DNA of 64,000 bases, taken from positions 321 to 64,320 of IMG/VR virus record IMGVR_UViG_3300028591_002825. One strand, 5' to 3'. Shown one piece after another: positions 6,804-60,772 of the stretch. The first letter of the stretch is position 1. The number at the start of each line of letters is the position of its first letter. Below the pieces are notes generated by a model, which worked only from the letters and a program-made list of their open reading frames with translations, did not search any database and was not told the DNA's origin. The DNA comes from a virus. Lineage: Duplodnaviria; Caudoviricetes. A program made the translations under genes and the position numbers.

Positions 6804-9800
6804 TTATACTGTCCCGTAACGTCTGTTTAATTTAAGATTACCTGCGTTTGCGTGTCTCGCTACTTGTTCATCTCCAAGATAGAAGTCAATATTCATGTAG
6901 CGCCTAAACGCATCAGTTAAAATTTCTTGTATTTCAGACCTTGTAACTACATTGTTTTGATTCTGAATAATAGTGTTTAACGCCCTCATTAACTCAGCAT
7001 TATCACCACTCATTTTCGTAGGAACAACTTTACCGTTTACAATGTCTGTCAGTCCAACATTTAACCTGTTTACTAAATTAGTTATATCATATATTTGCGA
7101 AGTTGTAAAGTTAACGGCGGATAACAGAGAGCCTATATTGGCTATAACAGTGTTGGTACAAATAGTCATATGTCCGGTAATAGTTTTCATAAGACTTGCT
7201 GTGCCGTTTAATACAGCAGTGTACATTACTGCGGCCATTTGTGACTGATTTAATACTTCTGTGCGACCATTAATGTGACCAACTGCTTCTGCACCAGCTT
7301 CACCAGCAACGAACATTGTTCCACGATTTGGCACACCGCCACTTGCATATTGAGCGATACTTCTCCACCCACCATTAGCGAATACGCCACCTCGTGCTTT
7401 ATGAAGGAGGTTCCATAGCCAACTTGCGCCTTTCTTTATTAAACTTACACCAACAGATACTTTTGTGCCTATCCAACTACTAATACTTTTCCATCCATCT
7501 TTCCACAGCTTAACGCCGACAGATACTTTTGTGCCTATCCAACTACTAATACTTTTCCATCCATCTTTCCACAATTTGATTCCAACAGATACAGCAGTTC
7601 CTACAAATTTCGACAATTTAGACCATCCATCTTTCCACAATTTGATTCCAACAGATACAGCAGTACCAACCCATTTTGAAATGCTTGACCACCCATTGTG
7701 CCAAAGGCTTATTCCAACAGATACAGCGTTTCCGATCCACTCTGAAATTTTAGTCCACCCGTTTTTCCACAGACTAATGGCAACAGAAACTGCGGTGCCT
7801 ACAAAATTCGCTATTGTTGTCCACCCATGCTTTTTAAGGGTTATCGTTGTTGTAATGTTTTGCTCACTGTTCTCAGGCATATCGTTTGCTTCATTTCCAG
7901 ATGCTTCTTCATAGACAGTTTGAATTGTTTTTACAATGGTCTCTGTCCCACTCTTTAAAATATTCCACGCATCGTCAACCCAGGTATTAGCTTTTTCAAT
8001 CGCTACTTGTACTGTCTTTTTGACTGTCTCAGCGCCGGCTTTAAACAACGTCCACGCATCTTCTGACCAATCACCAATTTTTGTAAGCACTAACTCTACT
8101 GTCTTTTTTACGGTTTCTGTGCCAGAGTTGAATACAGACCAAGCATCTCCAGTCCAGTCTCCAACTTTTTTAAATGTTGTTTCTACTGTCTTTTTTACGG
8201 TCTCTGCTCCACTTTTCAGTATATTCCAAGCGTCACTGCTCCAATCTCCAATTTTTTTGAAAGCCGCCTCTACAGTCTTTTTTACAGATTCTTTTCCAGA
8301 TTTAAATGCAGACCATGCTTCGTCTTTCCAATTACCGAGTTTTTCAAATATTGTTTGAACTGTTTTTACAATAGTCTCTGCGCCAGATTTAACAAATTCC
8401 CATGCTTCACCGGCTTTGTTGATAATCTTTTTAATAGTTACTTTAACAGTTTTTACTACAGTTTCTTTTCCACCCTTTAAAAAGTCTAATATATCTCCAA
8501 CTGTTTTGTCTGCATTATCAAACGCATCCATTATCGGGTCAAGAATCCGTTCCTTAACCCATTTAGCGATATTAATAAATGGCTCTGCAATGCCATTAAG
8601 AATGCCTAATCCGATATTTTTTGCGGCATCTATAAGCTCAGGAGCAGATGCAGGAGAATGAATACCAAATGCTTCTTTAAATCCATCAATAAATGGTTTG
8701 AAAATATTATCTATTATCCAACGAGCAATATTTTCAACAGCCTCTCCTATACCACCGATTATACCATAAAGAATACTACCGCCATATTGATTTTTCTTAT
8801 CAGCAAAATAATCAGAAATAGCTTGAGGTAATCCGCCGAATAACCCAGCAACAAGACCTGCTAATGCACCAGCTACTTCACCTGCAATTTTACTAACATC
8901 GCCAAATAATTCACCCCAAGGAACTGATTTTAAAAATCCTTGTAAATCAGCGCCAACATCTTGCCATTTAACCGTACCGATTGCAGTAGATAATGCTGTA
9001 GCAAGTTTATCTACAATAGCACCAAATGTTACGCCAGCAGATTCAAAATTAAACGTATTAAAGAAATTATTTATACTTGTTCCAATAGCTTTGCCGATTT
9101 TTACTGCATCAAGTTTAATTGCAAATGCTTTTTCACTACTTATAACCGCATTAAGTGCTCTTGCTATCGTGGTAGCTATTGAACTAAATGCATCTTCAGT
9201 AAATAAATTATTTATAAAATTTGCGAGACCAGTTGCTACAGACACTACAGAACCGTGAATAGTAGTCCAATCTAAACCATTAAGTGTGTTTACAACTGTA
9301 TCTTTTATAGTCGTGCCGAGATTGCTGAAATCAAATTTATTAGCAAATGATTCAAAGGCACTAAATATATTATTGATACCTTCTGATAACGTATTAGATA
9401 TGAGATTCCAGTCTATAGTTTTTATTGCGCTATTAAATAAATCAGCAAAGAAATTACCAACAAGTTTCGGGTCTATGTTAGTTATAAACTGATTTGCAAA
9501 GGTAAATACAGTATTTATTGCTTCTGCAATAGTTCTTCCTATTGCTTGCGCAAGATGACTATTACCATCTTCATCAACAGACATAAGGCCGTTAATGAAA
9601 GTAGCAAATGATTTACCAAACTTGCCAGCATATCCCTTTATTGTGTCCCAAGGAATACTATCTAATGCAGTTGCAAGTTTTTCACCAAGTATTTGACCGA
9701 GTTCTGTAAAATCAGCATTAGCCCACGCTTCTTTTATCTTTTCAGCCCAATCTTCAAAAGCAGATGGCATAGCGACAGTTTCAAACATATTGCTCGGACT

Positions 9801-46255: not shown

Positions 46256-46467
46256 TCATCTACCCCTTTCGTAAGCGCATCAAGTGGTCTTCCCAATGCT
46301 TTTGCTATAGTATACGCTGTGTGTAGCGACGGACCATTACGTGCACATAACATTCCACTAATTGTAGCAACACTTATTCCAGACCGTTCGCTTAATTCTT
46401 TTTGAGACCACCCATTTTCTACTAAGGCAATCCTTACATTTTTTGCAAACGCTTCAATTACTGTCAT
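46252..46467 (-). CDS. XRE-family HTH regulator
   Basis: WSQKELSERSGISVATIS...PSL..A..IAKALG. Confidence 0.85.
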   Translation of the reverse strand: MTVIEAFAKNVRIALVENGWSQKELSERSGISVATISGMLCARNGPSLHTAYTIAKALGRPLDALTKGVDE

Positions 46468-46805
46468 TCTACTTCTCCATTATGAATTCTTTCCCACTTT
46501 GCATCACATAATCCGAATTTCTCTCTTTCACAAAGAAAAGCTACATTACAAGCTAAGTGCCAAAGATGAGGAAGCCCGCTCTCATCATCTAAACCGTCTG
46601 GGTCATCGAGATAATGTATAAAGTGTCTGTATGCGGCATTACGAATCCTGTCTACATCAAGATTCTTCCAACCATGTTCCCCTGTCTCAGGATATTTAAG
46701 CATACCATACATTCTGACATGAGCTATGTCCCAAAGCATTTCTCTTGGAACAAGAGTAAGAACAGGTTTCCCATCGTCATTTTTGTGTATATCACTCATC
46801 CGCAA
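46464..46805 (-). CDS. dATP/dGTP diphosphohydrolase-like protein (DUF5664-like)
   Basis: K..LTLVP, YG..KY...GW, AAYRH..Y....D.ESGLPHL.H.ACNV.FL. Confidence 0.8.
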   Translation of the reverse strand: MRMSDIHKNDDGKPVLTLVPREMLWDIAHVRMYGMLKYPETGEHGWKNLDVDRIRNAAYRHFIHYLDDPDGLDDESGLPHLWHLACNVAFLCEREKFGLCDAKWERIHNGEVE

Positions 46806-50964: not shown

Positions 50965-51153
50965 TTACTCCTCTCTACGTAAGCATATAAAACCGGGAAT
51001 CAGTATAATGATGCCCGCTATGCACAAAACTCTCCAATCAAAAAGCGGTGAACCCGTGTACTGTTGTGCTTCTAAGTTACTTACTGAAAACCAAAGTAAC
51101 GTACTACCAACTATTAACGAACTCACCGCAATCACTTTTTCTCTCAGCTTCAT
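50965..51153 (-). CDS. Small two-helix membrane protein
   Basis: Two hydrophobic segments. Confidence 0.55.
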   Translation of the reverse strand: MKLREKVIAVSSLIVGSTLLWFSVSNLEAQQYTGSPLFDWRVLCIAGIIILIPGFICLRREE

Positions 51154-51204
51154 AATAAGCTCCTTTCTGCTATTTCTATAGCACTACTTTTTCATTACTC
51201 TAAC

Positions 51205-51233
51205 ATTATATCACACTATTCTCATTTTGTCAA
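51205..51233 (-). promoter_or_regulatory. Sigma-A promoter
   Basis: TTGACA-17bp-TATAAT. Confidence 0.75.
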
Positions 51234-51243
51234 CAAGAATATT

Positions 51244-52329
51244 TTACTCTTCATCTTCCATAAGTGCAATAACAATGGTAATGTTTCCGTCAATGAGTTT
51301 GATTGAACTATCATCACCATAATGAATCTCAATCAAGTCATTTGAAATAGCTTTGACTTCCTGCACAAGCATCTGAATGTCTACAGCACAGGTAAAGTCT
51401 CTCTGATTATCACTTGTCACATAAGGAAGAATCTCGATACCGCTTGACGCTTTAGACGATACCTGCAAGCCTTGATTTGTAAATGTGAGGTCTACTGCGT
51501 TCTTATCATATGTGCCAACGAACAGAGAAAGTCTGTCAAGCATCTGGAGTAAATCATTCTTCGGCACACCACAGTGACTATCAAACTCCTGCTCAATCAG
51601 ATTCGTAATAGGCTCAATAGCGAAGTCATCAATACCATCGACAAACTTACCAACAATCATGCAGTCAGGAGTTTCAAATACCACATCAGTAGCACTGAAC
51701 ATAGCTTTAATCTTCTCAGCACGCATTACAGCAACAAGGTCAAGAAACTCTGAACTTACAAGTTTGGGCGTATCAAACATCGGAATAGCTAAACTTGCAA
51801 TCTTATAGGAATCTGTAGCAACTACTTTATCTCCCATGTAATATGCTGTGTACTGCGGATTCTCCATAGTAACTGCAAGTGCAGGTTTAATAGTTTCAAG
51901 AATAGCAATGATAGTAGAACGATTGAACTCTTTAGGGTCGTGCAAAGCAGTATTGACAAAAATATCAGGAAACTTAACGGGCTCACCATCTTCATCAAGA
52001 GGAAGTTCCATAGTATAATTACCATTGCCCTTGACTTTCATTGTATACAGCTTTTCATCCACTGTCATAGTAATGCTTTCACAAGTCATTTTACTCACCA
52101 GTTTTGCAAACTGATTGGCGTCTACTACAACATAGAAATCATCTCCTGCTACATGCTGTTCTTTGATATACAGATAGTTGGTAGCATCTGTTGTAATGAC
52201 TGTAAGTTCTCCATCTTTAAGCCGAATACACATCATGCTGGTGATAGGAATGAGCTTATTATTACCAGCTCCTTTGATTGCTCTTGCTACTACGTCTTTC
52301 ATTAATTCTGTTTGGATTGTAAATTTCAT
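51244..52329 (-). CDS. dnaN: Sliding clamp, DNA polymerase III beta-like
   Basis: 361 aa; MKFTI, VATDSYKIA, three-domain beta-clamp pattern. Confidence 0.8.
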   Translation of the reverse strand: MKFTIQTELMKDVVARAIKGAGNNKLIPITSMMCIRLKDGELTVITTDATNYLYIKEQHVAGDDFYVVVDANQFAKLVSKMTCESITMTVDEKLYTMKVKGNGNYTMELPLDEDGEPVKFPDIFVNTALHDPKEFNRSTIIAILETIKPALAVTMENPQYTAYYMGDKVVATDSYKIASLAIPMFDTPKLVSSEFLDLVAVMRAEKIKAMFSATDVVFETPDCMIVGKFVDGIDDFAIEPITNLIEQEFDSHCGVPKNDLLQMLDRLSLFVGTYDKNAVDLTFTNQGLQVSSKASSGIEILPYVTSDNQRDFTCAVDIQMLVQEVKAISNDLIEIHYGDDSSIKLIDGNITIVIALMEDEE

Positions 52330-52383
52330 ATTCTTCTCCTTTATATAATATTTAATTTGGTCTACACTTAATCTAAATCCATA

Positions 52384-52602
52384 TTATCTCTCCAATACTC
52401 TATTAGCAGTAGTAGTTCTCCAGTTTTCTGCAAAATAACTTCTATTGCGAATAATATACTGACAGCCATAAGCATCTGTATAAGATTGAGGGTACGTCTT
52501 ATTTATGTGCTTAATGCCAGCTTTCTTCATTCGCTCTCGTGCTACATTTCTGTCAAGCTCTCTGGTATGTACTCTTGTTGGTATTCTGATTACTTTCTGC
52601 AT
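52384..52602 (-). CDS. Small basic hypothetical protein
   Basis: MQKVIRIP start after AAAGGAG. Confidence 0.55.
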   Translation of the reverse strand: MQKVIRIPTRVHTRELDRNVARERMKKAGIKHINKTYPQSYTDAYGCQYIIRNRSYFAENWRTTTANRVLER

Positions 52603-52603
52603 A

Positions 52604-53458
52604 TTAATTCTCCTTTCTATATCTACCACTTATTATTTTTGGTACAGCACATTCCCAATTTATATGATGATGAATACGTTTATGTGTATCTCCCATCTCA
52701 TATACCTTCACAGATGACGGACAAGCCATAACTGTATAAAAACTTTTTATATATGTACCAGAATCTTTATAAGATGCAGTCATACCACCGCTTAATGACT
52801 GTGTACCTAAATGGTCTACAGAAACATCTGCAAGTGTAAAAAATATTTGTCCTCTACTACCGTTTAAAACATATGACGTTACATCTTCATTCATACGACC
52901 ATAATACTGTATTGGTCTATCTACTTTACAAAAAAAGCTATTCATTGCTTTTCTTGCTAACCGTTCCTTAAATACTTTTGAACCAACCCCACCTATAAAA
53001 TCACCAATCTGTGACATAGCAACTGTTGATGCACCAGAACTTTCCAAAAATTCAAGTATCACATCCACAAGTTTATCAAAATCCTTTACATAAAATGTTC
53101 GTAAGCTACCATCTATCTCAACTCGACCCCTAAAATTAGAGTAATCATCATCAAGCTGTAGAAAATATGTATAACCTAATTGTTTAGCTATATCCCAACA
53201 CACATTTCTTGCAAAAACAATAGCCCGTCTATCTTTAGATAAATCCATAGTATCTACTCTTTCAGCTACTTGCGCCTTATTGAATACTATACACTTATCT
53301 TTACCAAAATTTCTATAATAATCGTATACTGTCTCGTCCTCGTCATCTAACACAAATATTACTTTTCCAGTATAGCCAGCCTTTTGTAGAGCTTTATATG
53401 TGTGCATATTATTAGCTCTACCGTGTGTTAATATAAATACGGCAAAATCATCTCTCAT
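52604..53458 (-). CDS. GT-A glycosyltransferase, TAGT/GREB1-like (T2/T6 beta-glucosyl-HMC-alpha-glucosyltransferase type)
   Basis: FILTHGRA, ARN..W, LQLDDDY, NED, TQS..GG motifs. Confidence 0.72.
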   Translation of the reverse strand: MRDDFAVFILTHGRANNMHTYKALQKAGYTGKVIFVLDDEDETVYDYYRNFGKDKCIVFNKAQVAERVDTMDLSKDRRAIVFARNVCWDIAKQLGYTYFLQLDDDYSNFRGRVEIDGSLRTFYVKDFDKLVDVILEFLESSGASTVAMSQIGDFIGGVGSKVFKERLARKAMNSFFCKVDRPIQYYGRMNEDVTSYVLNGSRGQIFFTLADVSVDHLGTQSLSGGMTASYKDSGTYIKSFYTVMACPSSVKVYEMGDTHKRIHHHINWECAVPKIISGRYRKEN

Positions 53459-54427
53459 TTATATAAACTCCACATCAGATTTAGGTTTTAACATTCTATA
53501 AACTTCATAATTTGGGCCCGTCATCCTGCACGGTATATCACACATTGACATATTTGTTATGGCAAGGTCTTTTTTAGTCAAAATATCTTTATCCATTATA
53601 TGACCAATTATTTGATACGGCTTATGACAACAATACATAACTTCACCACGTTCATTCAAAGCAATCTGTGCCCACTGCGCAGTACAAGTCTCTTGTTGAA
53701 CATCTAACATAGACCATTTATAGTTTAATGTAACCCGACTATCTAAACTTTGTATCTGCTTTATAGCTGTAATAATATTAGTAGGTAATGAGTCAAAATA
53801 CTCAGGCAATAAATTTTTATAATAACTACCATTAGTAGATTCCATAGGTCTAATACTTATATAATCTACTGGCAAGTCTTTATTACCATCGTAAAACTTG
53901 TAAACTTCCTCTACTGATTTTGCAAGTAATTGAATACCGAGTTTAGTTGTTGGTTGTTTACGATTTGCAAACTCTACTATGTTCTCTCGTACATTTTTAT
54001 AAACGCCTGATACGCCTCGTCTATCTTTATAACTACTGTCATCCCAGGCATCAAGCGATACCTTTAAATAAGCCGGATTGCACACAATATATTTATTAAA
54101 ATTTGTATTAATACCATATTTTATATTATGTGAATCCAACCAATCGACAATCTTATCAAAATCTTTTGATATTGTTGGTTCACCACCACCAGTTAATATA
54201 AACCCTTGAACGCCCAAATCTATAAGCCTATTTGCATATTTTATAAAATCTGAAATTGACATATAATTTGCACCATCATCTAATTCCCAACGTCTATATG
54301 TGCAATATGGGCAGTTATTATTACAATAATTATTAAGAAAAATATCTGCTGTTATAGGTTTTTGATTACCAAATATTCGGTCAATATGTGCAAACATTTT
54401 ATCACCAGTTATACTACTTATCATCAT
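53459..54427 (-). CDS. Radical SAM enzyme with C-terminal SPASM/twitch-like Cys cluster
   Basis: CNNNCPYC, LTGGGEPT, INTN, C...W.....G.V..CC..C. Confidence 0.88.
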   Translation of the reverse strand: MMISSITGDKMFAHIDRIFGNQKPITADIFLNNYCNNNCPYCTYRRWELDDGANYMSISDFIKYANRLIDLGVQGFILTGGGEPTISKDFDKIVDWLDSHNIKYGINTNFNKYIVCNPAYLKVSLDAWDDSSYKDRRGVSGVYKNVRENIVEFANRKQPTTKLGIQLLAKSVEEVYKFYDGNKDLPVDYISIRPMESTNGSYYKNLLPEYFDSLPTNIITAIKQIQSLDSRVTLNYKWSMLDVQQETCTAQWAQIALNERGEVMYCCHKPYQIIGHIMDKDILTKKDLAITNMSMCDIPCRMTGPNYEVYRMLKPKSDVEFI

Positions 54428-54809
54428 CAACCCCCAATAATGTTTTAATGTTTTTAGAAAGTCGAACATAACCATTGGCTATAGCATCATCAACATCAAT
54501 AATAACGAGTGCAGACTGTTCCATAAGCCGCTGAATTTCAGGCTCAGCATGTGCATAATAATCTGCTATCTTAGCATAATTAAACACTATATGTCTGGTT
54601 GCGGCAAACATTAAAAAATCTTTCACATCTTCAGGAACATTTGACCGTGCTATATTTCTTGCTAACTCTATATATTTAGTCTTATCATACAGCTCCCATA
54701 AATTTGGCTTTATACTACTGGGCAAATATTGAGGTATATCTACCTTTGTACTATATTTTTTATCAATAACCGCTTCTTTATTTTTAACTGGAAACAAACG
54801 GCTCATCAA
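54414..54809 (-). CDS. Small accessory protein (ParB C-terminal-like family seen beside phage DNA glycosyltransferases)
   Basis: FL..AATRH.VFNY.KIADYYAHA..E.Q.LME.SALVIID.DDAIANGYV. Confidence 0.6.
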   Translation of the reverse strand: MMSRLFPVKNKEAVIDKKYSTKVDIPQYLPSSIKPNLWELYDKTKYIELARNIARSNVPEDVKDFLMFAATRHIVFNYAKIADYYAHAEPEIQRLMEQSALVIIDVDDAIANGYVRLSKNIKTLLGVDDDK

Positions 54810-55990
54810 ATTACCCCCAACGGCTCTGTAAATACTTGTGTTATCCTTTCATTAATTGTGCATTGACTATCAACAAATAAATCATGCTGTTTTTGTTGAA
54901 TCATAGAATAATCATCTTTCAACCTATCTAATTTATCTGGTATTTGAGAAAATGAATCATAAATCAACGCATCATCGTGGAAATTAATTATTTCAGAATA
55001 CTTTCGTGAAAATAAAACGGGCAAACCACAATCAATCATTTCTAAATTTGCATACTCAACTGCTGAACCCCAAATTTTAGCTTTTTTTACAAGTAAACTA
55101 TTTTCTCTTGAATCCTCTACAACCCAAGTATCACCAATTAAACTTTTAGTCTTTTTACAACTACTTTTGCTACCGAGTATACAACAAATACCAGCATAAT
55201 AATTTGACCACCTATTTATTGCATCTAAACTATATGATGGGTATATTGTAAGTTTACCACTAACTGGTTCATCATCGTAACATTTAAATGCAAACTCGGG
55301 CTTTAATTGTTTTGGGGATTTTGATATGTCAAATAATGTCAATAATTGAGGCGGTGTGCTTATAGTACCAGATTTATTAAAATTAAATCTTGCACCTTCA
55401 TGGATAAAATAATAATTTGAACCCAAAAACTTTGTATCAATGCTTTTAAAATAAGATAGTGTACCTTTAAACGCTTCAACTCTACCGGCGGTTAATACAA
55501 TTTTACTACGCTTATCTAATGATAAGTGTGGCACTTCTGAAAAAGTGAAAGCATTTACATTTAAATAAATACAATTTTTAACTATATCTAATATATTGGG
55601 GTTTATAGAAAAATAATAATCAAAATCAACAGAATACTTTTTAAGATGTGCAAGTAACCGTAATAATCGTTCTATATTTCTATCACAATATAAATAACAA
55701 AACTCTATATTTGGCAATTCTGTACGCAATTTTGCGATATTGGATACTGCGCTATCTAAATCGTTATCATAAAAAGTTAAAAATATTACTCTGTCATAAA
55801 TAGAAATAATTTCTTTTAACTCAATAATTGTATCATAAAATTTTATATTTGCCAACCCCAAAGGTTTAAATTGTAACGGGTGTACAATATCCTTAAAATA
55901 TACATCGAACCCTAATTTACTATACTCTATGCCCAGTTTAGCTATACCACCACCATCAAATCCAGTAGCATTAATTATAACTGTTTTCAT
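54806..55990 (-). CDS. T4 alpha-glucosyltransferase-like GT-B enzyme
   Basis: Recalled T4 AGT motifs align: ATGFDGGGIAK (ARGLEGCGVTK), GRVEAFKG (GRTTTWKG), AVEYANLEMIDCG (SLEYTHLELGACG). Confidence 0.68.
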   Translation of the reverse strand: MKTVIINATGFDGGGIAKLGIEYSKLGFDVYFKDIVHPLQFKPLGLANIKFYDTIIELKEIISIYDRVIFLTFYDNDLDSAVSNIAKLRTELPNIEFCYLYCDRNIERLLRLLAHLKKYSVDFDYYFSINPNILDIVKNCIYLNVNAFTFSEVPHLSLDKRSKIVLTAGRVEAFKGTLSYFKSIDTKFLGSNYYFIHEGARFNFNKSGTISTPPQLLTLFDISKSPKQLKPEFAFKCYDDEPVSGKLTIYPSYSLDAINRWSNYYAGICCILGSKSSCKKTKSLIGDTWVVEDSRENSLLVKKAKIWGSAVEYANLEMIDCGLPVLFSRKYSEIINFHDDALIYDSFSQIPDKLDRLKDDYSMIQQKQHDLFVDSQCTINERITQVFTEPLGVI

Positions 55991-56963
55991 TTTCTATAGA
56001 TTCCCCATACCACGCTTTAGTTATCTCAACATCACATTTAATCGGAATACTTAAAGCACTCTTAGCGGCTTCTGACATAAGCTGTGCGAATCTTTCAGAA
56101 CATTCTTTTACATTTTCTTCTGGACACTCTGCTATTAATTCATCATGGACAGGTATGAGAAGTCTGAACCCTAATTCTTTTAATCTCTTATCATTGCCAA
56201 CTAAAATCATTGCTAACTTCGACATATCTGCCGCACTTCCTTGGATTCTTGAATTTACGCATTGTCTTTGTGCATCTGCTATTTTAGCTCCATTATCAAC
56301 AATCCATATTCCTTCTCTATTAGCTTCTTCAAATATTTTCCGCTTCTGACTAAAATAACAGTTATTCAGTTTCTTTAAATATTTTCTTTGAAGCTCTTCT
56401 GGAACTTCTGGCTCTGACATTTCTTCTGTTAAATCAAAATCTAACAAATCATCATCAGGCGGCGCTCCATCTTTCCACTTAAACTCATATTCAGGCAGTT
56501 GCAAATCAGGAAGTCTACGTTTTCTACCCCACAACGTAGTAACGTATCCTTTTTCATAAGCCATATCCAATGAATCTTCTTCAAATTGTGGAATTGCCGG
56601 AAAACCCTTAAATACAGAATCTTTTATTGCTTGTGCTTTTTTAATAGTTGTTCCCAACTGTTCAGCAATACTTGGCACTCCTCTGCCATACAACACTCCG
56701 AGCAATATTGACTTTGCCTGTGAGCGTCTATTTTTTCCTTCGGGATTAGTTGTACCGTCTGGACGAAACTCCAAGCAGTTTTCATAAGTCGTGTTAAAGG
56801 ACAAAGCGGCGATTTCTGCATATAAATCTTTCCCTTCTTGATATGCTTTAATCATCTTCGGGTCGCCACACATCTGCGTCATTACTTTTGGTTCCTGCTG
56901 TGACTAAGAATAGTCGCTGGACATAAGTACATAACTTTTTCTTGTCCTAATCGACCGTTTCAT
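55971..56963 (-). CDS. polA: Family A DNA polymerase, C-terminal piece (motifs A, B, C), with in-frame TAG at 56904..56906
   Basis: Own RBS AAGGAGG; MKRSIRTRKSYVLMSSDYS*SQQEPK; RSQAKSILLGVLYG; QGSAAD; PVHDE. Confidence 0.8.
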
Positions 56964-57657
56964 TAGCATCACCCTCCTTTCTAAACCATTTCGGATATTC
57001 ATACTTAGTCTTATTTCTACCATAAGTAAAATATCCGTGTTCAATACTCTGTTTTATTTTTCTCTGATATACACATTCTGCTTTTGTATTAAACGGATTT
57101 TCAACATTTGACCACCATTTCCACGCATCACGATATGAATGAAAATTAAAATGTGTTCCGTTCTCTAAAACACAATAACATCCTATAGAACGTGTATCAC
57201 CTGTGCCAAAGTTATGATTTCCTTTTGCTTTTTCAGATAATTTTCTTTTATGTTCTTCTGTAAATGGATTCTCTTTTCTATACTGCTTCATTGACCGTGA
57301 AATTTTAGAACGTGTTTCCTTACTTCGCATACGTTCTGAATGTTTCCTTTTTACATCGTCAAGAAACATTACATTATTATTTCCACCATCAACCATATTA
57401 TATCCATCTTTAATACAATTATACTTTGCTATATAGTATCTCTCCAGAATATTCAAATCTTCTATATTGTCCACATCACAAATCTTTTCAAATTTGAAAT
57501 TCTCAATACCATACTTTCGCATAGCATTATAAAGATGATTTTTATGACCGTGTTTCGCAGTATTTATATGTTGCCATTTACGTTCTTCTAATGTTCTAAC
57601 AGTTTGACCAACATATATCTTTCCATTTACAATATTCGTTATCTTATAAATTAACAC
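56947..57657 (-). CDS. GIY-YIG homing endonuclease with NUMOD3-like repeats
   Basis: LIYKITN..NGKIYVGQT; LE..YI..YN...GYN; GTG start after AGGAGGTG. Confidence 0.85.
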   Translation of the reverse strand: MLIYKITNIVNGKIYVGQTVRTLEERKWQHINTAKHGHKNHLYNAMRKYGIENFKFEKICDVDNIEDLNILERYYIAKYNCIKDGYNMVDGGNNNVMFLDDVKRKHSERMRSKETRSKISRSMKQYRKENPFTEEHKRKLSEKAKGNHNFGTGDTRSIGCYCVLENGTHFNFHSYRDAWKWWSNVENPFNTKAECVYQRKIKQSIEHGYFTYGRNKTKYEYPKWFRKEGDANETVD

Positions 57658-57676
57658 ATAATCACCTCCTGATATT

Positions 57677-57705
57677 ATTCTATCACGATATATGATTATT
57701 GTCAA
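57677..57705 (-). promoter_or_regulatory. Internal promoter driving the endonuclease and polA C-piece
   Basis: TTGACA-17bp-TAGAAT. Confidence 0.65.
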
Positions 57706-57733
57706 TAAGATAACTTATCATGTAAAATCCTAC

Positions 57734-58399
57734 TTACAATATATACTCACGAATAAATCTATTTGCGTAATCTGGATGTATCATGCTTCGATTAACAGTT
57801 GTATTATGACTTATATCTTCACGCTTTTTATTCTTATAATTAGGCGCGGAGAAAATAAAATTATGTTTTGGTTCACAATTTATAAACCAATATTGAGTAG
57901 GCTTTTTATAATAATCACCTTTACGACTTCTATCTACATCTATTATTTTTGGTTTCAATGCCCAATAATCTGTTAATATATGTGTAGTGCTTTTTGGATT
58001 TTCAATAATTAACTTTAAACCACGTTTTAAACAAATCAATACCAATTTTGTTACTAAATCATAATACTCTGCCAATTCTGCGAACAATTCTCTATCACGC
58101 TCCAATTTCTTTTCGATTGGCCAATCTTTATAACCAGCATTATTTCCTTGAAAAGCCAATCTTATTTGATGGCAAAATCGAACACATGGGAAAAACGCAA
58201 TTATCAAATCATCACTATTTACACTGTCAAAAATTGACGGTTCATCAACATAACCCGCCCTAATTTCCTTAAATAAATCAATTTGATAATCGGTTTGACC
58301 AAAATCATTTAAAATATCATAATCAAATGCTTCTATGCCAAATTTCTTAAACTCATTCTTAAAAGTCCCACTTTGTTCAAATAAACAATGTACAATCAT
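57734..58399 (-). CDS. Compact DNA cytosine-C5 methyltransferase-like protein
   Basis: CLFEQSG (motif I-like), FFPC (IV), IIENP (VI), KKPTQYW (VIII). Confidence 0.65.
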   Translation of the reverse strand: MIVHCLFEQSGTFKNEFKKFGIEAFDYDILNDFGQTDYQIDLFKEIRAGYVDEPSIFDSVNSDDLIIAFFPCVRFCHQIRLAFQGNNAGYKDWPIEKKLERDRELFAELAEYYDLVTKLVLICLKRGLKLIIENPKSTTHILTDYWALKPKIIDVDRSRKGDYYKKPTQYWFINCEPKHNFIFSAPNYKNKKREDISHNTTVNRSMIHPDYANRFIREYIL

Positions 58400-58406
58400 T
58401 TTTTTT

Positions 58407-59975
58407 TCACCTAAAATCAATAACAACTTCATCCTGTTGAATATCTACTTTTGCGACATTTACACAAGAACCATCATCAAGTAACAACTCATCGCCGGCA
58501 ACGATTTTGTCTGCGTATTTCCATTTATCGGCACACTCTACTTCGCACCACCTGTCTACTACAAATTGTTGTGTATCTGTTGATACCAAATTTTCTTCAT
58601 TTGTAGCGACAAACATTTTTCTAATCTCTTTATTATGACTGGGAATGTTCTGCATATTGGGATTCTCAGAAGAGAATCTTCCTGTTCTCGCACCGTACTG
58701 ATTAAAGCTACAATGAATACGACCGTCTTTGGGGTTCACACAATCAGGCAGTTTATCTATAAAAGTATCCACTATTGTAGAAAACTCTCTATAGTCTAAT
58801 ACTGCTTTTGCGACTGGATTATCCATACTTCTTAATGTCGCTTCATTTGTTGTTCTTACTTCCTTCTTTGTTTTCTTATCTACAGGAACTTCACAACCCA
58901 TAATATCATAAAGAAGAATAGCAAGCTGTGAGGAAGATTTAATATTAATTGGGTCATCTAATTTACAATTAGCTCCCATCTTTCTTCTATATGCTTCTAT
59001 ATCATCTCTATATGTATCACAGATTGCATTAAACTGTTTTATCCTATCATCAAGTAATGCATGATATTTGTCTTTAAGGAATTGATTATATTCAAAATCG
59101 AACTTTATTCCATTATCTTCCATATCACAAACTACTTTGATACAAGGCATTTCAATATTGAAGAATACCCAAGATACGCCGTTCATTCCGTTTCTTGCTT
59201 CTGGCGTACATGTTCTATCGTAGTATACAAACTGCTTTTGATACTGGTATAACTCATAAGTGATAATAGCGTCATGTGCGGCATACAGATAGAATGAATT
59301 GATTGGAATTTTATCTGCTGATACGCCTTTAAATAAAGCATCAAATGAAAACGCATCACCTTGTCCATTAAGTACATACTTCCTATGTAGTGCTTTCAGA
59401 CCATTATGCTCTTCATTTTCATTCATCAATCTCGCCGCAAGATATGCGTCCCATGTACAATAAATATCTTTCACGCCGAGCTGATTTCTTATAACTCGCA
59501 TATCGAACTTGGCGTTGAACATGATAATCTCAATATTAGTATCGTGAATTATCATATCAAATTCTTCTGCCACATCTTGTTCTGTAAGCTGATTATCTAC
59601 TCTTGCACCAGTTACATAAGAAGTATGATTAATTGGAACATATGCAGCTTTTTCATTAGGTGTATACAGACACAGACCTACAATACTATCAAGAATTGGG
59701 TCAAGACCCGTTGTCTCTGTATCTATTGCTACTACACCATTATTTACACACTTTGCAAAATAATCATGCAATTCATCTTGATTTCTAATAATTGCATAAT
59801 CATCCTTAAACTGTCCAAGATTTTTTTCAACCATAGCTTTTATCTGATTGATTTTAGCTAATAGTGAATTTCCACCTCGGACAGTTGTTTGTGCTTTTCT
59901 ACTTGTATTTGATTTTTTAGCAAGTTTATTATCTTGCTCTCTTCCCGCCCGCTTTGGAATACTAAATAAAGGCAT
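58407..59975 (-). CDS. polA: Family A DNA polymerase, N-terminal piece (3'-5' exonuclease + part of polymerase) with a Hint-like tail
   Basis: AIDTETTGL, FNAKFD, YAAHDA, GARTGRFSS..PNMQNIP; ends EIRKMFVAT plus 64 extra residues. Confidence 0.85.
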   Translation of the reverse strand: MPLFSIPKRAGREQDNKLAKKSNTSRKAQTTVRGGNSLLAKINQIKAMVEKNLGQFKDDYAIIRNQDELHDYFAKCVNNGVVAIDTETTGLDPILDSIVGLCLYTPNEKAAYVPINHTSYVTGARVDNQLTEQDVAEEFDMIIHDTNIEIIMFNAKFDMRVIRNQLGVKDIYCTWDAYLAARLMNENEEHNGLKALHRKYVLNGQGDAFSFDALFKGVSADKIPINSFYLYAAHDAIITYELYQYQKQFVYYDRTCTPEARNGMNGVSWVFFNIEMPCIKVVCDMEDNGIKFDFEYNQFLKDKYHALLDDRIKQFNAICDTYRDDIEAYRRKMGANCKLDDPINIKSSSQLAILLYDIMGCEVPVDKKTKKEVRTTNEATLRSMDNPVAKAVLDYREFSTIVDTFIDKLPDCVNPKDGRIHCSFNQYGARTGRFSSENPNMQNIPSHNKEIRKMFVATNEENLVSTDTQQFVVDRWCEVECADKWKYADKIVAGDELLLDDGSCVNVAKVDIQQDEVVIDFR

Positions 59976-60091
59976 GTTATCTTCTCCTATATAATTGCCG
60001 ACTGCATGAAGTAAAAATTTCACGAAAAATCTTCATACAACATTGTGTATTTGTACGGAAAGGAGGGAAAGCGTGCCGACAACTTATTCAA

Positions 60092-60772
60092 TTAATATAC
60101 ATCTCCTCTACGACCCGGCGTTCTACGTCTCGGCGCCTCATCACGGTCTCTGTCTCTGCTCTCTCGTCTACGAACAGGCTGTTCATCTTCATCATCACCA
60201 TCAGGCGGAAAATATCCGCTTTCAAGATAGAAGTCCATGTCCTCTGCTGACTTATCGAGAACAAGACCACCAAGAGGATTCGGCACTTCCGGTAAATCTT
60301 CAAGCGTAGTATTATCCTTCGACACTTCAAAAAATTCATAAGTAGTAGAAGTATCGCCCTTTTTACCCTTACGCTCAATGTCAAACTCATGCGCACAAAG
60401 CGGAGTATCAGAATTAGAATATCTGCTACAGATAGATACCATTCTCTGTACAAACTTCTTTCCTCTCTCCCAAAGCTGTACTTTATCTTCATCTACATTA
60501 TAGATAGGGATGAACAGCTTTACTTGTGTAGACTTTTTCTCACGACAAAACGGGCATGTGTCAAGAGGCTGTCTATACTCTCTGAGACAGTTTACATATC
60601 TCTTTCTGCCATCTTCGCCTTCAATCTGATGAACTGCAAATGCTTCTACATCATCAATTCCATTATACATGAATCTGACTCTTGCAGTATCGCCATCATC
60701 TTTCAAAGAGAAGAATCCTGCTCCCCCCTGACCACCATACTTATCAACTTCATCATACCTGACTCGACCCAT
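60092..60772 (-). CDS. Single-stranded DNA-binding protein (gp32-like)
   Basis: FFSLKDDGD..RVRF, C..C zinc site, acidic C-terminal tail. Confidence 0.72.
   Translation of the reverse strand: MGRVRYDEVDKYGGQGGAGFFSLKDDGDTARVRFMYNGIDDVEAFAVHQIEGEDGRKRYVNCLREYRQPLDTCPFCREKKSTQVKLFIPIYNVDEDKVQLWERGKKFVQRMVSICSRYSNSDTPLCAHEFDIERKGKKGDTSTTYEFFEVSKDNTTLEDLPEVPNPLGGLVLDKSAEDMDFYLESGYFPPDGDDEDEQPVRRRESRDRDRDEAPRRRTPGRRGDVY

Follow-up and report, generated by a model that had tools for sequence, protein, structure and literature searches.

What is made by a phage locus that encodes two glycosyltransferases of the T-even type, a fragment of ParB and a radical SAM enzyme? To our knowledge, phage DNA sugar modifications all begin at a hydroxylated pyrimidine. 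The hydroxylated base is supplied either by a thymidylate-synthase homologue or by an O2-dependent TET/JBP enzyme. The window analysed here is a stretch of 64,000 nucleotides (positions 321 to 64,320 of IMG/VR record IMGVR_UViG_3300028591_002825). The genome record is 64,320 bp long and 95% complete, and the phage encodes its own replisome. Our preferred answer, which we rate a little short of an even chance, is a post-replicative phage DNA glycosylation cassette in which the radical SAM enzyme is an accessory that tailors the sugar. That DNA is the target, the order of the steps and the type of reaction are what we infer. The genes that matter to the argument are the following.

46464-46805, dATP/dGTP-pyrophosphohydrolase-like gene elsewhere in the window genome
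52604-53458, minus strand, TAGT-family GT-A gene, 284 aa (PF20691, phrog_842)
53459-54427, minus strand, radical SAM gene, 322 aa with the start taken from homologues; the ORF is open to 54475 (338 aa)
54414-54806, minus strand, gene resembling the C-terminal half of ParB, 130 aa from the likely ATG at 54806 (ORF 54414-54809, 131 aa)
54806-55990, minus strand, AGT-like GT-B gene, 394 aa; an ORF without a sequence-family match, called from structure
55971-56882, C-terminal piece of a split polA, immediately before the cassette

The four cassette genes are successive minus-strand ORFs that overlap or abut. The stop of the polA piece overlaps the first cassette start by 20 nt, the AGT-like and ParB-tail genes (genes 1 and 2) meet in a TGATG overlap, the radical SAM start overlaps the preceding gene by 14 nt with a GGGGG Shine-Dalgarno sequence ahead of it, and the junction between the radical SAM and TAGT genes is TAAATG. 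The GC content of the locus is 0.313, compared with a window mean of 0.376 (sd 0.028, 3,387-bp windows), and no other 3,387-bp window in the 64 kb is lower (fraction at or below, 0.002). The earlier note, made from the letters, had described four coupled genes that are AT-rich relative to their flanks, which is what we find. It had also placed them directly after polA, which is correct for the C-terminal piece of the split gene. On its other side the cassette is flanked by dnaN. A PF18909 gene raised the idea of a Z-genome, and this idea was dropped, as no PurZ-type PF00709 gene was found.

The first gene could be assigned only by its predicted structure. The 394-aa protein has no Pfam (E <= 0.01), PHROG, NCBIfam or PDB sequence match, and this includes PF11440. 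Its AF2 model (pLDDT 92.7) was used for a Foldseek search, in which the best 9 matches are all T4 AGT (E 1e-11, TM 0.68-0.70). VIA-align places residues 1-389 of the model onto AGT 1-400, a full-length match (Z 29.2, rmsd 2.9 A, 337 aligned residues), and the next GT-B enzyme, TarM, follows at Z 20.9, about 8 Z-units behind. On this modelling, the protein is a remote T4 AGT homologue with a GT-B fold. The AGT-like call of the earlier note is borne out, and the structure search that it had set as a test of where the transferases belong groups this one with the DNA enzyme of T4 over its full length. The protein is confined to the window's clade, where 33 relatives are known.

The last gene encodes a member of the TAGT family: it scores 133.6 bits with PF20691, over a cut-off of 27.5 (E 1.2e-38). 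PF20691 is the family of the T6 beta-glucosyl-HMC alpha-glucosyltransferase, the enzyme that adds the second glucose (PMC13390438), and the window protein matches the PHROG of that T6 enzyme, phrog_842, over its full length (E 7.6e-63). Its DDD motif (the GT-A DxD) is conserved, with no variation at D104 and D105 and almost none at D103. The claims of a TAGT-like enzyme, and of both T-even-type transferase families paired in one phage, therefore hold. A P-loop domain adjoining TAGT has a sub-threshold best match to Ploopntkinase3 (E 0.008). PDB sequence searches with TAGT, the ParB-tail protein, the 57734 methyltransferase and a second radical SAM family were uninformative.

As the earlier note had suspected, the second gene corresponds to the C-terminal half of ParB alone. 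The 131-aa protein matches only positions 126-215 of the 217 in phrog_620 (E 4.5e-8), and is 46-54% identical (tblastn) to residues ~117-250 of the 251-aa full-length, ParB_N-bearing proteins that main-clade cassettes encode. It has no nucleotide-binding domain, and a profile search for PF02195 (ParB_N) found no match in the whole window genome. Its family is represented by an alignment of 20 sequences with a mean identity of 52%. Complex prediction supports binding of this ParB-tail to TAGT, with an ipSAE of 0.85 in three runs compared with 0.00 for the best control; 58 of 80 solved complexes attain the mark used for this score, as do 2 of 110 mismatched pairs. Contacts agree between runs to at least 89%, and partner pLDDT is at least 79. 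The predicted interface is built from invariant residues of both proteins, including P273 and I275 at the TAGT C-terminus.

These two genes are the constant part of the cassette. The ParB-tail and TAGT occur together in all 75 mapped TAGT loci, and some sister loci have two tandem pairs. The radical SAM gene is an add-on, present in only 40 of the 75. The 35 loci without a cassette radical SAM gene include that of a sister phage whose PolA and DnaN are 88-91% identical to those of the window.

What, then, would supply the acceptor? Profile searches of the window genome found neither PF12851 (Tet_JBP), a search run without a positive control, nor PF00303 (ThyA). The result was the same, with the same caveat on PF12851, for TET and ThyA-type genes in five other near-complete radical SAM-bearing genomes and for PF12851 and PF00303 in the 35 records that lack the radical SAM gene. 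TET_JBP was also not found in 301 Lachnospiraceae genomes, a result of little weight since only 3 of the 301 have TAGT. The earlier statement that the window has no TET or dCMP hydroxymethylase thus holds. A TET or hydroxymethylase elsewhere in the genome, which would have spoken against its reading, was not found in the 95%-complete record, again with PF12851 searched without a positive control. Because no TET or ThyA-type enzyme was found with or without the radical SAM gene, DNA glycosylation itself is something that we infer, and we count the missing enzyme against our favoured reading.

A route through 5mC made by the 57734 methyltransferase, which the earlier note had coupled to the cassette, does not stand. 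This methyltransferase gene lies with a GIY-YIG gene inside an insertion in polA that close relatives do not have. No homologue of the methyltransferase is encoded by three complete genomes that bear the cassette, and PF00145 C5-methyltransferases are absent from five complete genomes of this kind. We regard it as an unrelated passenger. A group I intron at the polA split was also considered and rejected (no Rfam match at E <= 0.1 across 51000-60500). The proposal of a DNA-modification locus keeps the AGT-like enzyme, TAGT, the ParB-derived partner and the polA-dnaN site in its favour; the unexplained acceptor weighs against it, and the role given to the methyltransferase is not supported.

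The third gene encodes a radical SAM enzyme (PF04055, 42.9 bits against a cut-off of 29.5). The cluster motif CX3CX2C reads CNNNCPYC, and the SAM-binding GGE is present as an invariant GGGE. C35/C39/C42, C248, C266, C267, H268, C296, C300 and R301 are also invariant, and the auxiliary motif C-x17-CCH-x27-C-x3-CR contributes five invariant extra cysteines in a twitch-like arrangement. The label "radical SAM/SPASM" is correct in its first half and only loosely so in its second: PF13186 (SPASM) was not reported for this protein, its five extra cysteines are not the seven-Cys motif of SPASM, and NCBIfam gives weak partial matches to SPASM/twitch maturases, far below cut-offs. With the AF2 model (pLDDT 85.4) the best fold matches are DesII (Z 20.3, 306 aligned) and BlsE (Z 19.9). 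The peptide maturase SkfB scores Z 19.1, and MoaA (Z 17.5) and viperin (Z 17.3) are also among the fold neighbours. The lead of DesII and BlsE over SkfB is ~1 Z, effectively a tie, and this counts against the sugar-tailoring role. SPL is absent from the best 50 of 999 re-aligned chains, and on this ground we set an SPL-like reading aside as less likely. The family is mildly acidic (pI 5.2-6.4), and the ESM Atlas returned only "viral radical SAM" clusters.

The relatives of this enzyme outside the cassette point to sugars. Twelve second-tier relatives (E 1e-34 to 1e-28) retain every signature residue. The gene context was read for five of them, and in four a GT2 gene is the immediate neighbour; the clusters around these also encode a Wzx-type flippase, a deacetylase, an epimerase/dehydratase, a sulfatase or methyltransferases. 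Within the cassettes, the TAGT phylogeny follows the presence of the radical SAM gene, with 3 changes compared with 24 expected (a quick IQ-TREE, in which one "loss", L115, is a truncated locus). This is the pattern expected if donor specificity co-evolves. At another locus, L063, an immediate neighbour of TAGT is a cytidylyltransferase-like gene.

Do the transferases act on DNA at all? We consider it quite unlikely that they and the radical SAM enzyme instead serve to build or modify a glycan carried by a virion protein or by a host envelope polymer, their likeness to DNA transferases being merely ancestral. Such a role would suit the polysaccharide clusters just described and five fragmentary contigs in which the radical SAM gene lies in a head module (MuF, radical SAM, scaffold, capsid, GT2-like) with no ParB or TAGT seen. 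A TAGT search of these contigs, at most 45% complete, gave no match, and hhalign of TAGT with the GT2-like protein aligned only the DxD region, without significance. GREB1, a TAGT relative, is reported to glycosylate a protein (PMC7968844), roughly 65% of phage GT contigs, those with neither 5mYOX nor ThyS next to them, were left out as less clearly aimed at DNA, and the lack of an acceptor-making enzyme in the searched genomes would fit as well. Several observations speak for DNA. The AGT match is specific and full-length, TAGT fits the PHROG of a DNA enzyme, the partner derives from ParB, and the cassette sits between polA and dnaN and is translationally coupled to polA. The ParB/terminase context of related cassettes adds to this, and replication, ParB and terminase neighbours are as reported for phage DNA-GT pathways (PMC13229309). 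Read by eye, the translations showed no sign of a signal peptide or of membrane features.

The earlier note had left two roles for the radical SAM enzyme, sugar tailoring and an anaerobic substitute for TET. As a substitute, it would take a hydrogen from the C5-methyl group of DNA thymine or 5mC and leave a radical for its auxiliary cluster to oxidise, after which addition of water would give 5hmU or 5hmC for TAGT and the AGT-like enzyme to glycosylate, an anaerobic analogue of base J. The main-clade order ParB-TAGT-radical SAM, adjoining terminase, mirrors the ParB-5mYOX-GT cassettes (PMC13229309), with the radical SAM gene at the position of 5mYOX. The strict-anaerobe setting supposed in the earlier note is also real: all 15 of the cassette's prophage hosts are strict anaerobes from the gut or rumen, in which an O2-dependent TET would be unworkable. 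This is how a TET substitute would be expected to look, and we count it against our favoured reading. TET and ThyA genes were found in none of the six near-complete radical SAM-bearing genomes, the auxiliary Cys motif is invariant, as in dehydrogenase-type radical SAM enzymes, and M6 gp53 is a precedent for radical SAM action on DNA-borne groups (PMC8989533).

We nevertheless judge a TET substitute unlikely. The ParB-tail and TAGT persist in the 35 loci without the radical SAM gene, where 14 of 15 near-complete genomes have no radical SAM gene of any kind and none of the 15 has TET or ThyA. By fold the enzyme neighbours proteins that act on sugars and nucleotides, with no SPL in the best 50, the nearest relatives lie in glycan clusters, the family is acidic, and the ParB-tail is predicted to bind the transferase.

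Sugar tailoring is favoured for three reasons: the folds, the glycosyltransferase contexts of relatives that share the Cys/His/Arg signature, and the sister phages that do without the radical SAM enzyme. We also count in its favour the acidity of the family, the L063 neighbour, the TAGT tree and, by analogy, the precedent of phage DNA glycosyltransferases that rely on a donor-making partner enzyme. The head-module contigs count against it, as does the lack of sugar-nucleotide pathway genes alongside the radical SAM gene in the window.

MoaA and viperin act on nucleotides, and their presence among the fold neighbours suggests another order of events, in which the radical SAM enzyme would modify a free (deoxy)nucleotide and the phage PolA would incorporate the product as the acceptor for both transferases. 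The phage's own replisome and its dATP/dGTP-pyrophosphohydrolase-like gene are compatible with this. However, the transferases are kept in sister phages that lack the radical SAM gene, we saw neither a dNMP kinase nor another partner from nucleotide salvage, and the nearest relatives are glycan-cluster enzymes. A pre-replicative route is, in our view, very unlikely.

Post-replicative glycosylation with a tailored sugar would proceed as follows. The conserved core would be TAGT bound to the protein that resembles the ParB C-terminal domain. In this heterocomplex the ParB-tail probably aids TAGT on double-stranded phage DNA, in a manner comparable to the activation of phage thymine dioxygenases by full-length ParB. 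A second glycosyl transfer would come from the AGT-like GT-B enzyme, as in the pairing of AGT and TAGT in T2/T6. The radical SAM enzyme would not stand in for TET. Its target would be a hydrogen atom on a carbon of the sugar, which it would abstract with participation of its auxiliary Fe-S cluster, either from the nucleotide-sugar donor (preferred) or from the DNA-attached sugar. The product may be a sugar of the deoxy, keto, epimerised or decarboxylated type.

DNA-type transferases occur here and in dozens of related cassettes without either starter enzyme, and the chemistry would therefore be undescribed for DNA. Glycosylation free of both TET/JBP and ThyA could place the sugar directly on a canonical base, through the ParB-tail:TAGT pair together with the AGT-like enzyme, or on an acceptor made without O2 by the radical SAM enzyme; either would give a radical-tailored sugar on an undescribed base, an outcome that we regard as possible, if doubtful. 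Two parts of the suggested system would be new. One is a ParB fragment as a glycosyltransferase adaptor, and the other is a radical SAM family, also found in bacterial glycan clusters, that would be the first such family with the task of tailoring a sugar meant for DNA. DNA modifications of this kind determine resistance to restriction and CRISPR defences, and they also yield enzymes for DNA labelling.

Each component has a counterpart in known systems. The T2/T6 gentiobiosyl-hmC pathway likewise combines an AGT-type GT-B enzyme with a TAGT (PF20691) in one phage (PMC13390438). In contrast, no ThyA-family dCMP hydroxymethylase was found in the window genome, and the phage infects a Gram-positive strict anaerobe. 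TAGT is paired with a ParB-tail protein, a radical SAM gene lies between the transferase genes, and the AGT-like sequence has diverged too far to match PF11440. The ParB-5mYOX-GT cassettes (O'Toole et al. 2026, PMC13229309; Pyle et al., 10.1101/2023.12.21.572611) share a ParB homologue without a DNA-binding domain beside DNA-modifying enzymes and glycosyltransferases, often by terminase. The window differs in that no 5mYOX was found in its genome (PF12851 searched without a positive control), in that its clade has the C-terminal half of ParB alone whereas the published ParB requires NBD and CTD, and in that the predicted partner of the ParB-tail is a glycosyltransferase, not a dioxygenase. Our literature search found no paper combining at least three of TAGT, JBP, ParB and radical SAM.

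Gp53 of Pseudomonas phage M6, described as the first radical SAM enzyme known to help install a DNA modification (PMC8989533), also tailors a group on hypermodified phage DNA. It is an SPL-like isomerase, a fold missing from the best 50 of 999 chains for the window enzyme, and the M6 pathway works on glycinyl-thymine from 5hmdU, with no sugar. DesII and BlsE, which act on a TDP-sugar and on cytosyl-glucuronate, give the highest structural scores, with alignments that span almost the entire protein, and like the window enzyme they are radical SAM enzymes with a C-terminal twitch-type extension. Identity to them is only 14-15%, and the C..CCH..CxxxCR signature and the substrate would be specific to the phage and glycan-cluster family. 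Finally, the subclass II phage DNA-GT pathways, which start from 5hmC made by C5-MT and 5mYOX (Pyle et al.), provide the model that we adopt for the radical SAM enzyme: an accessory enzyme that supplies or changes the sugar adjoins the DNA glycosyltransferase. The accessory is an SDR epimerase there and a radical SAM enzyme here.

The four genes after polA are translationally coupled and AT-rich, as the earlier note had claimed. Their coordinates, junctions and base composition bear this out, with the qualification that polA itself is split and its C-terminal piece (55971-56882) is what directly precedes the four reading frames. All genes around the cassette in the window lie on the minus strand, and one small ORF separates the last cassette gene from dnaN:

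54806-55990, minus strand, ORF for a 394-aa AGT-like GT-B protein
54414-54809, minus strand, ORF for a 131-aa ParB-tail protein
53459-54475, minus strand, ORF for a radical SAM enzyme (rSAM)
52604-53458, minus strand, ORF for a TAGT glycosyltransferase
51244-52329, minus strand, dnaN

The cassette junctions are, in order, a 20-nt overlap, TGATG, a 14-nt overlap with GGGGG ahead, and TAAATG. Comparison with homologues puts the rSAM start at 54427 (MMISSITGDKMF...) rather than at the first ATG of its ORF. The GC content of the cassette, 31.3%, is the lowest for any 3,387-bp stretch in the 64 kb, where such stretches average 37.6% (sd 2.8%).

The early region otherwise encodes ordinary replication and recombination functions: primase, SSB, the split PolA, beta clamp and clamp loader, as well as RecA, a Cas4-like nuclease, resolvases and a MazZ-like pyrophosphohydrolase. 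The only radical SAM gene in the genome is the cassette copy. The earlier view that the window holds no TET or hydroxymethylase extends to the genome, in which no Tet_JBP, thymidylate-synthase-family or PurZ gene was found; the window covers nearly all of a 64,320-bp IMG/VR record judged 95% complete. A 113-aa protein encoded at 46464-46805 has hits to phrog_801 and, at E 3.4e-19, to PF18909 (dATP/dGTP diphosphohydrolase N-terminal). Since a PurZ-type gene is absent from the genome, this gene was ruled out as a Z-genome signature.

The insertion that divides polA into its N-piece (58407-60023) and C-piece carries two genes:

57734-58432, minus strand, C5-methyltransferase-like METHYLTRANSFERASE protein, 232 aa (phrog_757; PC and ENP motifs)
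56947-57705, minus strand, GIY-YIG endonuclease

In the close relatives L002-L004 and L064, polA is uninterrupted and the methyltransferase is absent; of the two inserted genes, L084 has just the GIY-YIG gene at this polA site. The split gave no Rfam intron match, and three complete cassette-bearing genomes hold no homologue of the methyltransferase. Co-expression of this enzyme with the cassette had been suggested, but its location and its absence from these loci and genomes speak against a part in the pathway. It rides along with a mobile element and is no pathway step.

Relatives of the rSAM number 61 in IMG/VR (51-91% identity) and 15 in prokaryote genomes, nearly all gut or rumen Bacillota. 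The taxa bearing it are Blautia and other Lachnospiraceae, Oscillospiraceae, Clostridia and Phascolarctobacterium; one relative lies on a short contig of a Bacteroides-labelled MAG. Prophages with cassettes of the main clade occur in the cultured isolates Blautia sp. MSJ-19, Blautia sp. Sow4_E7, Muriventricola aceti H5_61 and Clostridium sp. OF09-36. The commonest order is full-length ParB, TAGT and rSAM, with terS/terL directly downstream, and some rSAM-bearing cassettes have a second TAGT paralogue. The order in the window's clade is polA, (AGT-like), ParB tail, rSAM, TAGT, dnaN. A survey based on TAGT drew on its 80 top-scoring relatives (49-93% identical), out of at least 555 loci, and covered the 75 of these loci that were newly fetched. 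A ParB or ParB-tail gene stands beside TAGT in all 75, and rSAM adjoins TAGT in 40, with none next door in the other 35. On a quick maximum-likelihood TAGT tree, rSAM presence changes three times (once at a truncated locus) versus 24 times expected by shuffling, and the five members of the window's clade (support 99) branch from within rSAM-less polA-dnaN phages. The invariable pairing in these loci, the partial occurrence of rSAM and the tree together establish ParB(-tail) plus TAGT as the constant unit; rSAM, the AGT-like protein, further TAGT copies and a P-loop protein can stand in for one another as extras.

The rSAM-less phages include a close sister of the window, L086, with PolA 88-91% and DnaN 91% identical to the window's. 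In this phage (L086:4463-6849) and in L093, L098 and L099, the polA-dnaN interval contains two ParB-tail/TAGT pairs in tandem. Each TAGT there has its own ParB-tail paralogue ahead of it, and a cognate pairing fits these phages. Elsewhere in the rSAM-less set the pair is single, in some loci joined by an extra TAGT or a small P-loop protein.

Several further genes accompany the core pair. A kinase-like P-loop domain of ~190 aa lies beside or is fused to TAGT in 10 loci, with and without rSAM, for example in these related loci:

L010:6622-7185, P-loop domain, GPSCAGKT
L025:6575-7138, P-loop domain, GPSCAGKT
L085:4982-5572, P-loop domain, GPSCAGKT
L097:5424-5984, P-loop domain, GPSCAGKT

Its resemblance to Ploopntkinase3 is sub-threshold only (E 0.008), and it may phosphorylate a sugar or a DNA base. 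A second, unrelated rSAM family (283-294 aa, CQHDCKYC) occurs just upstream of ParB-tail/TAGT in L102 (3385-4236), whereas in L096 (8297-9181) it follows the pair after a few genes; thus more than one rSAM family has been recruited to such cassettes. L102 also encodes a 347-aa ParB_N and DUF4417 fusion (8498-9541) a few kb downstream of its pair. On the 136-kb contig L063 (3306-5013 and 8001-9164), a cytidylyltransferase-like and a dUTPase/DCD-like gene come after the ParB tail and TAGT, and an AGT-like homologue follows recA, with no rSAM within 8 kb.

The 131-aa protein is ParB-like in its C-terminal part only (phrog_620 positions 126-215) and aligns to the stretch from residue ~117 to 250 in the ParB_N-bearing proteins (251 aa) that related cassettes encode, in agreement with the earlier ParB-C-like call. 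No ParB_N domain was found anywhere in the window's genome. When complexes of TAGT and the ParB tail were predicted with a family alignment for each partner, ipSAE was 0.85 in three of three runs and 0.00 in three of three controls, with at least 89% of contacts common to runs and partner pLDDT of at least 79. When the prediction tool was calibrated, 58 of 80 solved complexes attained this mark, as did 2 of 110 mismatched pairs. In the predicted interface, the invariant C-terminal end of TAGT (269-284, with P273 and I275) meets the invariant ParB-tail segment SALVIID..DAI..GY. This model supports binding of the ParB tail by TAGT.

Both transferases resemble T-even enzymes. The 394-aa protein has 33 relatives and no match in Pfam, PHROGs, NCBIfam or PDB sequences. 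Its AF2 model (pLDDT 92.7) superposes on T4 AGT along the whole length (VIA-align Z 29.2, rmsd 2.9 A, 337 residues), ahead of TarM as the next family (Z 20.9) and T4 BGT (17.9). The structure comparison favors the AGT-like call, and the protein is a remote AGT homologue. The last cassette protein is a clear TAGT, as had been proposed, by PF20691 (133.6 bits) and by a full-length match to the PHROG of the T6 beta-glucosyl-HMC alpha-glucosyltransferase. That T6 second-glucose enzyme was confirmed as a PF20691 member in a 2026 paper (PMC13390438).

The radical SAM part of the earlier radical SAM/SPASM assignment stands on the motifs CNNNCPYC and GGGE; the SPASM part does not. The further invariant residues are five Cys, a His and an Arg (C248, C266-C267-H268, C296, C300-R301), a twitch-like, single-cluster pattern that differs from the seven-Cys SPASM motif. 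The best fold match of the model (pLDDT 85.4) is DesII (Z 20.3, 306 residues), then BlsE (Z 19.9), a small lead over the peptide maturase SkfB (19.1), with MoaA (17.5), viperins (about 17), anSME (16) and BtrN (12.8) below. Spore photoproduct lyase (SPL) is not among the top 50 fold matches. The substrate of DesII is a TDP-sugar and that of BlsE is cytosyl-glucuronate.

Among 1.8 billion representatives searched exhaustively by profile, the next full-length relatives beyond the phage family score E 1e-34 to 1e-28, and every signature residue is kept in all 12 sampled. Contexts were read for five. Four directly adjoin GT2 glycosyltransferases, in clusters variously holding a Wzx-type flippase, polysaccharide deacetylase, epimerase/dehydratase, sulfatase and PAPS reductase, and methyltransferases; the fifth lies in a phage head region, and on a second contig UDP-galactopyranose mutase is encoded close by. 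Because of the fold resemblance to DesII and BlsE and, more tellingly, these GT-adjoining relatives, we favor the view that the rSAM is an add-on for tailoring sugar rather than a base-preparing enzyme. The mildly acidic pI of the family (5.2-6.4, versus a median of 7.85 for the TAGT alignment), the cytidylyltransferase-like gene directly adjoining TAGT in L063, and published phage DNA-GT pathways in which some GTs are active only with a neighboring donor-making enzyme (Pyle et al., 10.1101/2023.12.21.572611) agree with this reading. Its substrate would most likely be a nucleotide-sugar donor and less likely a DNA-bound sugar. Of the two roles put forward earlier, sugar tailoring is thus preferred and the TET substitute disfavored.

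The acceptor could be a hydroxylated base made by another enzyme or, within its own clades, by rSAM as a TET substitute, which we consider unlikely. None of the 35 rSAM-less records has a Tet_JBP or ThyA-family match; in 15 of them completeness is 90% or higher, and several of the 15 have terminal repeats. Fourteen of the 15 lack radical SAM genes altogether. TET, ThyA and C5-methyltransferase genes were not found in five near-complete rSAM-bearing genomes. Since the Tet_JBP searches lacked a positive control, they may have missed a highly divergent dioxygenase. Glycosylation of a canonical base by TAGT is possible. A cassette target other than DNA seems improbable; the rSAM kin in glycan clusters favor it, as do five fragmentary contigs (L006, L008, L027, L029 and L050) ordered TerL, SPP1-type portal, MuF-like, rSAM, scaffold, capsid, GT2-like transferase. 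No ParB or TAGT was seen in these contigs, whose records are at most 45% complete.

In the literature searched, no paper joins three or more of TAGT, JBP, ParB and radical SAM, and about 65% of phage GT contigs, those without 5mYOX (TET/JBP-type thymine dioxygenase) or ThyS neighbors, were explicitly set aside. Phage ParB homologues without a DNA-binding domain activate thymine dioxygenases; one is needed on double-stranded DNA only and requires both its nucleotide-binding and C-terminal domains (PMC13229309). A ParB helper and a terminase or replisome setting are common to the 5mYOX and TAGT cassettes. In the former, ParB has both domains and a dioxygenase as client, whereas in the window the C-terminal half stands alone with a transferase as predicted partner. 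Such a conserved half would be a new form of the ParB-helper theme. M6 gp53, the one phage rSAM reported to act in installing a DNA modification (PMC8989533), is SPL-like and sugar-free, in contrast to the rSAM here, which we take for a sugar tailor. The pairing of AGT-type and TAGT-type transferases is shared with T2/T6, and the rSAM recalls the sugar-shaping partner enzyme of epimerase-dependent DNA GTs.
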